A stretch of 7,590 nucleotides of DNA from a virus. Lineage: Duplodnaviria > Heunggongvirae > Uroviricota > Caudoviricetes. How positions within the stretch are numbered: position 1 is the stretch's first letter; every line of letters begins with the position of its first letter. A model generated the notes under the pieces. It worked only from the letters and a program-made list of their open reading frames with translations. It was not told the DNA's origin and ran no database searches. The stretch lies in the IMG/VR virus record IMGVR_UViG_2609459830_000025; one strand, 5' to 3'. Below are positions 2,686 to 7,590 of this stretch, one piece after another. Both the position numbers and the translations under genes were made by a program.

Positions 2686-2711
2686 CGCAAAGTCTCCGCA
2701 ATTACACGCAA
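2670..2711 (-). promoter_or_regulatory. cII-dependent int promoter pI, with cII box TTGC-N6-TTGC
   Basis: On the minus strand TTGCGTGTAATTGCGG (plus coordinates 2698-2711) sits just upstream of and overlapping the xis start, as at lambda pI, whose transcript starts inside xis. Confidence 0.55.
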
Positions 2712-2892: not shown

Positions 2893-3134
2893 TTATCATC
2901 TCCATAAAACAAACCCCGCCGTAGCGAGTTCAGATAAAAGAAATCCTCGTCAGTGCGAGGATGCTGTTCATTGCTGCTATACACTTTTTTGCTCTCAACG
3001 TAAGCGGTAGCTCATTCTGTTGGGTTGGTGCAGTTGCTTTTAGGAAATGCTATTTACCCCTTAAACGTCGGCTGAAAGAGCTAAAATCCATGCAAAAAAT
3101 TTACGCAATTTTGTGTATTATTGTGCAGTAAGTA

Positions 3135-3737
3135 ATGAGCTATTTTCTGCGCAAAAAATGGATGGTAAATTTGTCCGGGGCAGGAAAAATTTTATGGGCG
3201 CTAAACATGAAAAAAGATTCGTATCCTTATTTGATTTGCATGACAGTTTTAGGCCTGATCTTTATTTTCCTTTTCTTCTGGTGGCGGGCAGATATTTACA
3301 GGGTCACGTTTCTTAATCAGAGTATATCCCACTATTACATTCTGTTTAGCATGGGAATAGCTTTTCTGTTATCTCTGTTTTGGGTTAAGAAGGGGATAGT
3401 AAAACAAAGCGGCTGGAAGAGTCTGTCAGCATACCTTAAGGTTTATGCAGGGATGTGCATATTTGCTGGATTTTTTCTGATTATACCCCTTACAACACTA
3501 ACTTATTTTTTGCCTGGAGAGACATCGTCTTATGTTGCACCGTATCGGTATACTTCCGGTAGTTCAAAAAGTTGTTCTGGAGCTGAGGTGGATGACCCCG
3601 ATCTACATGAGAATATTCGCATTTGCTATCCGTATGGCAATTATGAGTACGATAATATTATCTATGTTGAAAAGAAAATTAATACATTAGGTGCGGTAGT
3701 AACATATGCACAGACCGCGCGTGATGATACTGAATGA
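3135..3737 (+). CDS. Hypothetical membrane protein, 3 predicted transmembrane helices plus a ~75-aa C-terminal soluble domain; cargo gene in the exo-xis region
   Basis: 200-codon ORF on the strand opposite to all flanking phage genes, in an AT-rich segment (about 33% GC in a hand-counted stretch versus about 55% in exo). Hydrophobic stretches YLICMTVLGLIFIFLFFWW, YYILFSMGIAFLLSLFWV and VYAGMCIFAGFFLIIPLTTLTYFL. Start is uncertain: ATG at 3135, 3162 or 3207 (MKKDSYPY...), none with a strong Shine-Dalgarno. Followed by a hairpin terminator. Confidence 0.75.
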   Translation: MSYFLRKKWMVNLSGAGKILWALNMKKDSYPYLICMTVLGLIFIFLFFWWRADIYRVTFLNQSISHYYILFSMGIAFLLSLFWVKKGIVKQSGWKSLSAYLKVYAGMCIFAGFFLIIPLTTLTYFLPGETSSYVAPYRYTSGSSKSCSGAEVDDPDLHENIRICYPYGNYEYDNIIYVEKKINTLGAVVTYAQTARDDTE

Positions 3738-3771
3738 GATAGTATATAGCGGGCAAGTTTTAGTTAATTTA

Positions 3772-3805
3772 TCGAGGTAATATAATTTACCTCGACTCGT
3801 TTATT
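3772..3805 (+). terminator. Predicted intrinsic terminator for the membrane-protein gene
   Basis: TCGAGGTAA-tataat-TTACCTCGA perfect 9-bp inverted repeat, followed by CTCGTTTATTCT (moderately T-rich), 35 nt after the stop codon. Confidence 0.5.
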
Positions 3806-3933
3806 CTGGTATTAATATTTCGCTTTACGATCGATTTTTATCTGATGATATCATGCGGTTTTCATATACTGACTTACTGTCTTTTCTCCGTTAGCGATTT
3901 TCTCCTGCTCAGCGATGATTTTATCTTTGGCTT

Positions 3934-3951
3934 CTAGTTAATTTCGCTCAC
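3934..3951 (-). pseudogene. Remnant of the ea22 start (GTG plus 5 codons, then TAG)
   Basis: Minus strand reads GTG AGC GAA ATT AAC TAG. The GTG overlaps the orf73 stop (GTGA) exactly as I recall for the orf73/ea22 junction in lambda, but the frame stops after 5 codons where the sequence leaves lambda. Confidence 0.4.
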
Positions 3952-4169
3952 TTCGAACCTCTCTGTTTACTGATAAGTTCCAGATCCTCCTGGCAACTTG
4001 CACAAGTCCGACAACCCTGAACGGCCAGGCGTCTTCGCTCATCTATGGGATCGCCACACTCACAACAATGAGTGGCAGATATAGCCTGGTGGTTCAGGCG
4101 GCGCATTTTTATTGCTGTGTTGCGCTGTAATTCTTCAATTTCTGATGCTGAATCAATGATGTCTGCCAT
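3948..4169 (-). CDS. TraR/DksA-family C4 zinc-finger protein (lambda Orf73-like)
   Basis: 73-aa ORF MADIIDSASEIEELQRNTAIKMRRLNHQAISATHCCECGDPIDERRRLAVQGCRTCASCQ... with paired Cys motifs (C-x2-C ... C-x2-C) typical of TraR/DksA zinc fingers. Position in the exo-xis region matches lambda orf73. Confidence 0.85.
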   Translation of the reverse strand: MADIIDSASEIEELQRNTAIKMRRLNHQAISATHCCECGDPIDERRRLAVQGCRTCASCQEDLELISKQRGSK

Positions 4170-5583: not shown

Positions 5584-6365
5584 GCTGCCACCTTCTGCTC
5601 AGTGGCTTTCTGTTTCAGGAATCCAAGAGCTTTCACTGCTTCGGCCTGTGTCAGTTCTGACGATGCGCGAATGTCGCGGCGAAATATCTGGGAACAGAGC
5701 GGCAATAAGTCGTCATCCCATGTTTTATCCAGGGCGATTAGCAGAGTGTTAATCTCCTGCATGGTTTCATCGTTAACCGGAGTGATGTCGCGTTCCGGCT
5801 GGCGTTCTGCAGTGTATGCAGTATTTTCGACAATGCGCTCGGCTTCATCCTTGTCATAGATACCAGCAAATCCGAAGGCCAGACGGGCACACTGAATCAT
5901 AGCTTTATGCCGTAACATCCGTTTAGGATGCGACTGCCACGGCCCCGTGATTTCTCTGCCTTCGCGGGTTTTGAATGGTTCGCGGCGGCATTCATCCATC
6001 CATTCGGTAACGCAGATCGGATGATTACGGTCCTTGCGGTAAATCCGGCATGTACAGGATTCATTGTCCTGCTCAAAGTCCATGCCATCAAACTGCTGGT
6101 TTTCATTGATGATGCGGGACCAGCCATCAACGCCCACCACCGGAACGATGCCGTTCTGCTTATCAGGGAAGGCGTAAATTTCTTTCGTCCACGGATTAAG
6201 GCCGTACTGGTTGGCGACGATCAACAATGCGATGAACTGCGCATCGCTGGCATCGCCTTTAAATGCCGTCTGGCGAAGAGTGGTGATCAGTTCCTGTGGG
6301 TCGACAGAATCCATGCCGACACGTTCAGCCAGCTTCCCTGCCAGCGTTGCGAGTGCTGTACTCAT
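5580..6365 (-). CDS. bet: Bet single-strand annealing protein (Red-beta)
   Basis: 261-aa [69 protein letters not shown]..., recognised as lambda Bet. Confidence 0.97.

Positions 6366-7113: not shown

Positions 7114-7590
<477 letters not shown>

Follow-up and report, generated by a model that had tools for sequence, protein, structure and literature searches.

A mobile cassette with a predicted promoter in a 434-type prophage encodes a predicted inner-membrane protein of a new family, a probable moron that may exclude other phages

The DNA described here is a stretch of 7,590 nucleotides from the virus record IMGVR_UViG_2609459830_000025 (the window, by which we mean its full length), and our subject is a single gene in it, which the initial annotation placed in the open reading frame (ORF) 3135-3737 of the plus strand and took for a membrane protein that could be expressed in the lysogen. 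The ORF is present as described, with an open reading of 200 residues, and judging by sequence the window is a 434-type prophage at att-lambda: positions 2900-3950 match phages 434 and 2B8 with 99.7-99.8% identity and mEp332 with 98.7%. The gene is the CPT_434_36 of the phage 434 record, where it is named 'putative membrane protein', and the ECs0804 of the defective prophage Sp3 in O157:H7 Sakai. As had been noticed, it is convergent with the PL operon, since its neighbors (int, xis and ORF55 on the left, the genes from the zinc-finger gene to gam on the right) all lie on the minus strand. It occupies most of an AT-rich cassette at 3070-3844 (plus strand), which is mobile: blastn aligns it at 76% DNA identity to positions 5864-6636 of L014, a locus from a P2-like prophage of E. 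coli.

Three possible starts had been left side by side for this gene (3135, 3162 and 3207). All three exist as candidates, but conservation singles out the ATG at 3207, which is M25 of the 200-residue reading. It is the first residue in every divergent homolog, and the residues upstream of it are not conserved. At 13 other loci, all of them non-434, an in-frame stop lies 2-19 codons upstream of the conserved ATG and no alternative start is available; in L014, the stretch that is open in 434 contains an indel of 1 nt and, 5 codons before the ATG, an in-frame TAA. PGAP, for its part, calls exactly 176 residues in a KplE1-type prophage remnant of E. coli. From the starts of the divergent homologs, the upstream stops and the PGAP call we conclude that the gene is 3207-3737 (plus strand, stop included) and encodes 176 residues, the 24 codons at 3135-3206 being an in-frame 5' extension outside the gene that is open only in the 434-type sequence. 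This start agrees with the transcript start predicted below at about 3178, which lies downstream of both ATG 3135 and ATG 3162; the TTG at 3171 is inside the predicted -10 hexamer. The starts used elsewhere, 3135 in RefSeq (200 residues) and TTG 3171 in the phage 434 record (188 residues), are thereby corrected to ATG 3207. The 2B8 records mis-call the gene as pieces of 52 and 49 residues.

The protein had been assigned to no recognizable family, and our searches leave it there: it has no match in NCBIfam or PADLOC, Pfam offers nothing usable (only DUF6057, sub-threshold, at E values up to 1), and the single PHROG match, phrog_1416, is annotated as of unknown function and covers just the third transmembrane (TM) helix plus the C-terminal domain. 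We collected 74 homologs with identities down to 42%, and a hidden Markov model scan of 1.84 billion representatives gave 62 relatives, about 30 of them full-length (166-202 residues) and of the same layout. The family is found only in Enterobacterales, with Proteus, Providencia and Erwinia at its outer limits, and none of its members bears a name other than 'hypothetical'. Between the 434-type and the P2-borne copies the ratio of nonsynonymous to synonymous substitution rates (dN/dS) is 0.08-0.15 with its minimum in the C-terminal domain (omega 0.076), and by this measure the family is under strong purifying selection. Together, the 74 homologs and this ratio argue against a chance ORF, and we are highly confident that the gene is real and has the architecture described in the next paragraph. 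The deep search also returned short forms of 86-112 residues, among them P0082 (112 residues), which clusters with a 176-residue member, and P0086, a frameshifted copy; on sequence comparison at least these two are artefacts, and the short members are truncations. Two large matches of the deep search covering multiple stretches, P0124 and P0131, were discarded as low-complexity noise. The family is best filed as new and unnamed, yet of a known kind, that of moron-encoded inner-membrane proteins, for a gene which itself has already been annotated publicly as a putative membrane protein.

The initial annotation had further described three hydrophobic helices followed by a polar C-terminal domain, and both features were recovered. 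In Kyte-Doolittle windows the three segments lie around residues 30-50, 64-84 and 105-127 in the 200-residue reading, and AlphaFold2, using a 21-sequence alignment, returns three long helices (H5-29, H38-61 and H70-101) and then a five-strand beta domain, with a predicted local distance difference test score (pLDDT) of 86.8 for the whole protein and of 91.4 for the C-terminal domain modelled alone. According to hydropathy and AlphaFold2, the membrane part extends on the plus strand over 3225-3512 and comprises TM1 (about 3225-3284), loop 1, TM2 (about 3324-3386), a lysine-rich loop 2 and TM3 (about 3444-3512). The remaining 74 residues (3513-3734, plus strand) are polar and acidic, with 12 D/E versus 6 K/R, and form a five-strand beta-barrel which contains an invariant CSGA motif and two invariant cysteines (codons 3573-3575 and 3624-3626, plus strand); a disulfide between these two cysteines is probable. 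The family-wide mean number of K+R is 6.2 for the N-terminus plus loop 2 and 1.9 for loop 1, a bias that points to an N-terminus in, C-terminus out orientation, and we therefore predict that the barrel is periplasmic and that the N-terminus and loop 2 are cytoplasmic. With this topology, the only cytoplasmic parts would be 6 residues at the N-terminus and a loop of about 16. Loop 1 appears in the full-length model as a short strand (E34-36), a feature compatible with its being on the same side of the membrane as the C-terminal domain. The best fold matches of the barrel are all weak and correspond to small barrels such as DUF1093 (YxeA-type) and other OB-like domains; among PDB sequences, a profile search found no match with an E value below 0.43. 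A lipoprotein reading was rejected, as the Y-L-I preceding Cys11 (176-residue numbering) is no lipobox and Cys11 is not conserved.

The cassette differs in composition from its surroundings, with a G+C content of 37.2% versus about 43.5-53.2% for the flanking genes, and it recurs in unrelated settings. The window copy is in a lambdoid prophage. Homologs at 55-78% identity are carried by P2-like prophages of E. coli, Salmonella and Klebsiella michiganensis, where their site is always the interval from the portal gene to gpA, with an orientation convergent to that of gpA (P0039, P0044, P0048 and P0055), while their other neighbors vary from locus to locus. This slot of P2-like prophages is the old/tin hotspot, known for its defence-rich cargo (bioRxiv 10.1101/2024.10.15.618418). 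Among 5426 complete E. coli genomes, 915 (17%) carry the gene, always on the chromosome, in complete att-lambda prophages, in decayed Sp3-type prophages and in the KplE1-type remnant. In the latter the neighboring exo is a pseudogene and our gene is intact, and it is likewise intact in decayed Sp3. Only 434, 2B8 and mEp332 carry it among 50,697 phage records. Patchy presence among related phages, mobility and deviant G+C content are traits of morons (PMC3594210), which, following the concept of Juhala et al. (2000) cited there, are mobile genes of deviant G+C content with their own promoter and terminator that are expressed from the repressed prophage. With the AT-rich cassette, the positionally conserved promoter element and the 3' hairpin described below and the placement of the P2-borne copies in the old/tin slot, the idea of an independently expressed accessory gene gains in substance, and we consider it likely that the gene is an autonomous, lysogen-expressed moron.

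The transcription signals were compared by aligning the upstream regions from nine contexts. A single block is common to them, GTG(A/G)TAA(A/T/G)TT, which contains an extended -10 of the form TGnTAAnTT. In the window this is TGGTAAATT at 3163-3171 (plus strand), with the TG at 3163-3164 and the hexamer TAAATT at 3166-3171, from which transcription would start at about 3178 and leave a 5' untranslated region of about 29 nt. TGnTAAnTT stands 44-48 nt before the ATG in the window and in L014, L004-6, L015-16 and L017-18 (P2-like prophages of E. coli and Salmonella, and Cedecea); in L019, a P2-like prophage of Klebsiella, TACAAT is found at the matching position. Two of these lineages share no alignable upstream DNA with 434. 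As the motif itself has a chance frequency, it is the constant position in otherwise unalignable DNA that provides the evidence for the extended -10, and on this alignment we propose 3163-3171 as the promoter. A weak -35 candidate, TTTTCT, is suggested by sequence and alignment at 3143-3148 (plus strand), 17 bp upstream of the -10 hexamer. The initial annotation had seen its only promoter candidate in TATTAT at 3116-3121. This hexamer is present, but it is outranked by the conserved extended -10, as is, for the role of promoter, a CII site annotated in the same region. Downstream, a weak Shine-Dalgarno-like GGGCG (3196-3200, plus strand) stands 6 nt before the ATG at 3207, and a GG(A/G)G-like block occurs at this position in all aligned upstream regions (AAGGAGG in L007 from Klebsiella). 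At the other end of the gene, 35 nt past the stop codon, a terminator-like hairpin at 3772-3795 (plus strand) is followed by CTCGTTTATT, a modest T run; its folding energy is -12.9 kcal/mol (z -3.9), and none of 200 shuffled sequences folds as well. In L014 the corresponding hairpin folds less stably (-8.0 kcal/mol, z -0.8) and lacks a T run.

Two further elements lie in the upstream region. A near-palindrome, TTTTCTGCGCAAAAAA, fills 3143-3158 (plus strand) in the spacer of the predicted promoter and is a candidate operator. It is identical in L014; L004 from Salmonella has TTTTCTACGTAAAAAT, whose core is still palindromic (TGCGCA changed to TACGTA), and L005 has the non-palindromic TGAGTA. 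It could be an operator for some regulator, or merely an AT-rich spacer. Further upstream, 51-67 nt before the predicted transcript start, is a direct repeat, TTGTGTA-TTA-TTGTGCA (3111-3127, plus strand). This repeat, of the general form TTGTGYA-N3-TTGTGCA, has a 10-bp period and an A-tract before it, and L014 presents about five GTGCA repeats at about 5897-5940; a host-regulator binding site could be located here.

Relatives of the gene are also found on chromosomes. In seven Enterobacter species the homolog occupies one syntenic slot, in the order LysR, gene, HAMP-GGDEF, AI-2E transporter, and the P2 and lambdoid marker genes that were tested were not found within 10 kb of it. A second chromosomal slot is common to Cedecea and Pseudescherichia, and a third one is found in a Klebsiella sp. 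The Enterobacter orthologs diverge slightly faster than their neighbors, with a mean identity of 0.78 versus 0.85-0.96. The initial annotation had named homology to a membrane protein unrelated to phage biology as an observation that would speak against it, and part of this has indeed been observed, in the syntenic homologs of Enterobacter, Klebsiella, Cedecea and Pseudescherichia. These chromosomal relatives are still compatible with exclusion, because the HK97 gp15 protein, a proven exclusion protein, likewise has chromosomal relatives (PMC3594210).

From these data the following scenario can be proposed. The cassette at about 3070-3844 would be a moron that has entered a 434-type prophage in the orientation opposed to its PL operon, its phage copies descending from a chromosomal Enterobacterales gene family and the cassette having moved between lambdoid and P2-like phages. 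The putative sigma-70 extended -10 promoter at 3163-3171 would need no phage activator, and transcription would run from about 3178 to the hairpin at 3772-3795. Because this promoter would be independent of an activator and faces away from PL, expression is expected in the repressed lysogen; during lytic growth, N-antiterminated transcription from PL would run antisense through the gene. The product, a 176-residue inner-membrane protein, would display a disulfide-held barrel in the periplasm and act from the periplasmic side of the inner membrane on a conserved envelope component. The strong constraint on the periplasmic domain suggests such a conserved host component as the target rather than a variable phage protein. 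In this way the lysogen might be protected by blocking the genome entry of superinfecting phages, as HK97 gp15 and P22 SieA do, neither of which is related to our protein. We prefer entry-blocking because the best-documented roles of prophage proteins of this kind (SieA, gp15) are genome-entry blocks, and our analysis makes it the single most likely function, at a level of confidence which remains that of a possibility. An envelope-acting moron, for which blocking of entry is the most plausible activity, is our best explanation as a whole, and we advance it tentatively. The more complete claim, that of a single-gene, envelope-acting anti-phage family of genome-entry blockers, absent from PADLOC, captured from a chromosomal Enterobacterales gene and moving with its promoter between lambdoid PL regions and the P2 old/tin hotspot, we regard as rather unlikely in all its parts together.

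The closest analogue, in architecture as in the way the protein would work, is SieA of P22, a three-TM inner-membrane protein of 162/164 residues that blocks injection (PMC10883804). Like our gene, for which the 176 residues, the three TM helices, the promoter and the expression from the prophage are predictions, sieA is expressed from the prophage, encodes a protein of comparable length (about 160-176 residues) without signal peptide and with three predicted TM helices, has an uncertain annotated start and possesses its own promoter (PMC10883804). In sequence the two are unrelated: hhalign of our family profile against SieA gives a probability of 0.1%, and the SieA motif FxRYPxEAxxFNK is absent from the protein. 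In the C-terminal part, the conserved motif of SieA is predicted to be cytoplasmic, whereas our protein presents a predicted periplasmic beta-barrel with two invariant cysteines, and the gene for SieA belongs to the immI region of P22-like phages, outside PL and old/tin. A second analogue is gp15 of HK97, an exclusion protein of the inner membrane that is encoded by a moron and has homologs only in Enterobacteriaceae, for the most part on chromosomes rather than in phages (PMC3594210). It is a self-contained moron of deviant G+C content, with its own promoter and terminator and expression from the prophage, and its evolutionary pattern parallels that of our family; it differs by its position inside the tail operon and by the fact that exclusion has been demonstrated for gp15 and is a hypothesis for the protein described here. 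As for homology to gp15/YebO, Pfam and PHROG searches with E values up to 1 returned only the sub-threshold DUF6057 and phrog_1416, gp15 itself not having been aligned directly. Finally, the cargo of the P2 old/tin hotspot resembles our gene in that homologs at 55-78% identity fill exactly this slot, and differs in that the protein matches no PADLOC model; the cargo of this hotspot, moreover, is not exclusively defensive.

Several observations weigh against entry-blocking by an autonomous moron. A search of PADLOC-DB 2.0, which covers known and candidate defence systems, gave 0 families at E values up to 1, and literature searches for WP_000120056, ECs0804 and the 434 accession numbers, together with the 434 genome announcement, turned up nothing on the function of the gene. 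The periplasmic domain is the most constrained part of the protein (omega 0.076), without the diversification that is expected in an arms race with phage proteins, and the fact that siphovirus-type and myovirus-type prophages have this gene in common speaks against a block directed at the entry machinery of the carrier phage itself. The syntenic homologs in the non-prophage, non-defence neighborhoods of Enterobacter, Klebsiella and Cedecea/Pseudescherichia point to an ordinary cellular role. On the side of expression, the promoter is a prediction, the -10 motif taken alone is no rarer than chance in the window, and a generic sigma-70 scan missed the extended -10 and found only chance-level matches, all within the ORF.

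In the principal rival explanation, the gene would serve lysogenic conversion or fitness outside defence and benefit the host through a role in envelope physiology inherited from the chromosomal homologs, such as a contribution to stress tolerance or the modulation of some transporter or sensor. Vertical inheritance of the syntenic Enterobacter orthologs, the similar contexts in Klebsiella and Cedecea/Pseudescherichia, the constraint on the periplasmic domain, the weak OB-like/DUF1093 fold matches and the missing PADLOC match are all in its favor. The repeated presence of the P2-like copies in the old/tin hotspot, whose characterized cargo is mainly anti-phage, points the other way, as does the somewhat faster evolution of the Enterobacter orthologs relative to their neighbors, and this explanation is no better specified than exclusion, no member of the family having a known function. 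We regard it as a serious possibility, although not one we would favor. The initial annotation had compared the protein with lambda RexB and SieB, lysogen-expressed, membrane-associated exclusion functions, which would make it an abortive-infection effector that depolarizes or kills the cell on sensing a superinfecting phage. Part of this comparison stands: lambda sieB (34482-35036, on the plus strand among minus-strand PL genes) has the same geometry against PL as our gene, which encodes a small polytopic membrane protein and occupies accessory positions in prophages. Homology and a RexA-like partner, on the other hand, fail it, as the hhalign probabilities are at most 0.2% (0.09% for SieB, with no SieB match in Pfam or PHROGs, and 0.15% for RexB, with no RexB family match in Pfam or PHROGs at E values up to 1). 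RexB needs RexA, whose gene is adjacent and co-transcribed with that of the repressor; our gene has no rexA-like partner, being alone between ORF55 and the zinc-finger gene and far from the immunity region, and elsewhere it travels alone with varying neighbors. SieB and RexB act after DNA entry, whereas the sole folded soluble domain of our protein is predicted to lie in the periplasm, so little of it is left in the cytoplasm for sensing an intracellular infection, and its chromosomal orthologs are outside defence contexts. Such an effector is therefore unlikely, and a predicted periplasmic, probably disulfide-bonded domain fits an envelope-acting role better than a channel of the RexB type triggered from the cytoplasm.

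Two other explanations appear still less probable. Colicin immunity proteins have three or four TM helices and come to mind here, and the protein could in principle confer immunity to a toxin that acts on membranes, for instance a pore-forming bacteriocin, a contact-dependent effector or one of type VI secretion. Its size and number of TM helices are about right, and it is an orphan gene on mobile elements and chromosomes. No toxin gene is consistently adjacent, however, a YafO toxin being present at one locus only and on the opposite strand, and the family scans gave no usable match; to our knowledge, colicin immunity proteins do not have a conserved periplasmic barrel like the 74-residue one predicted here. 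We consider this highly improbable, and to the same degree an explanation at the level of regulation, in which the repeat at 3111-3124 is a fourth CII-dependent promoter that fires when lysogeny is established and produces an RNA antisense to distal PL. These positions (TTGT-N6-TTGT) are annotated as a CII consensus site in OL657226 (434), the repeat is conserved in the closest relatives of the cassette, and the genuine pI CII box at 2698-2711 indicates that a CII regulon exists in this window. In CII promoters of the pRE, pI or paQ type, however, TTGC-N6-TTGC straddles the -35 region and the second repeat is followed at about 13 nt by a -10; no acceptable -10 is found here at this pRE-like spacing. 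The TTGT-N6-TTGT pattern has a chance frequency in the window (3 found, 1.9 expected) and moves with the cassette into P2-like prophages (loci L014, L004 and L005), so that it is poor evidence for CII control; P2-like prophages do not, as far as we know, use lambda CII. The element whose position is conserved is the extended -10, 40 nt further downstream.

Should the gene indeed encode an entry blocker, about one E. coli strain in six, O157:H7 included, would be protected by it, and it would have passed unnoticed in the classic phage 434. If the protein excludes phages, the few exclusion proteins that act at the envelope and have targets open to study would be joined by a new, widespread single-gene family, and the confident structural model, a cassette that is simple to clone and its presence in a classic model phage and in O157:H7 make it accessible. 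If its role is in ordinary envelope physiology, it would be a routine hypothetical membrane protein. In mechanism, nothing observed here is surprising. The presence of the promoter-bearing cassette in lambdoid and P2-like prophages is a clean case of a moron passing between temperate phages of unrelated types and links the PL-distal slot of lambdoid phages to the P2 defence hotspot.

The remainder of the window is organized as follows. From the left end, the minus strand carries ybhC (1-1284), a lambda/434-type int (1419-2489), xis (2467-2685) and ORF55 (2725-2892), and, to the right of our gene, a TraR/DksA zinc-finger gene (3948-4169) followed by DUF1382, DUF1317, exo, bet, gam, kil and cIII. 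ORF114, located between xis and ORF55 in phage 434, is missing (2686-2724 of the window versus 1602-2080 of M60848), which makes the window 434-like and not phage 434 itself; the gap of 39 nt between xis and ORF55 is like that of O157:H7 and other E. coli att-lambda prophages. Just upstream of xis, TTGCGTGTAATTGC at 2698-2711 (minus strand) is where 434 records put the CII-controlled pI promoter. The adjacent GC-rich hairpin at 2716-2735, which can be read from either strand, matches t'I, a terminator annotated in M60848, and a hairpin with a T run at 2943-2962 (minus strand) corresponds to the t-L4 terminator of the same record. As t-L4 is placed immediately past the cassette in the PL direction, PL transcripts terminated there would already have crossed the cassette antisense. 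Between ORF55 and our gene, the 434 record holds a second 'putative membrane protein', CPT_434_35, for an ORF of 56 residues (2961-3131, plus strand) that PGAP does not call. It has no match in Pfam or NCBIfam, only its 3' third lies inside the cassette common to P2-like prophages, and by these signs it is probably not a gene.

Other observations concern the neighbors of the gene in its various contexts. In the old/tin hotspot of Klebsiella (L019/L020, 2281-5623, minus strand) a 790-residue protein with a weak AAA_16 match is accompanied by a 279-residue protein, and in that of Salmonella (L005, 6703-7687, minus strand) a YafO-family toxin by a 200-residue protein; these pairs may be defence or toxin-antitoxin systems. 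The E. coli hotspot in L014 contains StbA/ParM-like genes. A contig of 3.5 kb binned as 'Candidatus Nanosynbacter' (L026, JARKOR010000073.1) contains the gene (98% identity) as well as lambda-type exo and bet (98-99%), and is almost certainly an E. coli prophage contamination of the metagenome-assembled genome. In the b region of the 434 record, just left of attP (L001, 1-1090), a full-length NleC-like metalloprotease and an NleH-like fragment are annotated, both related to type III secretion effectors; we see in them a parallel to the effectors that O157:H7 Sp3/CP-933K carries at the same site of the chromosome. Finally, the position just right of cIII, occupied by ea10 in lambda, holds here a fragment of an IS3-family transposase (rve, rve_3 and rve_2 domains; 7156-7584, minus strand) that extends up to the window end, and the prophage is interrupted at this point.

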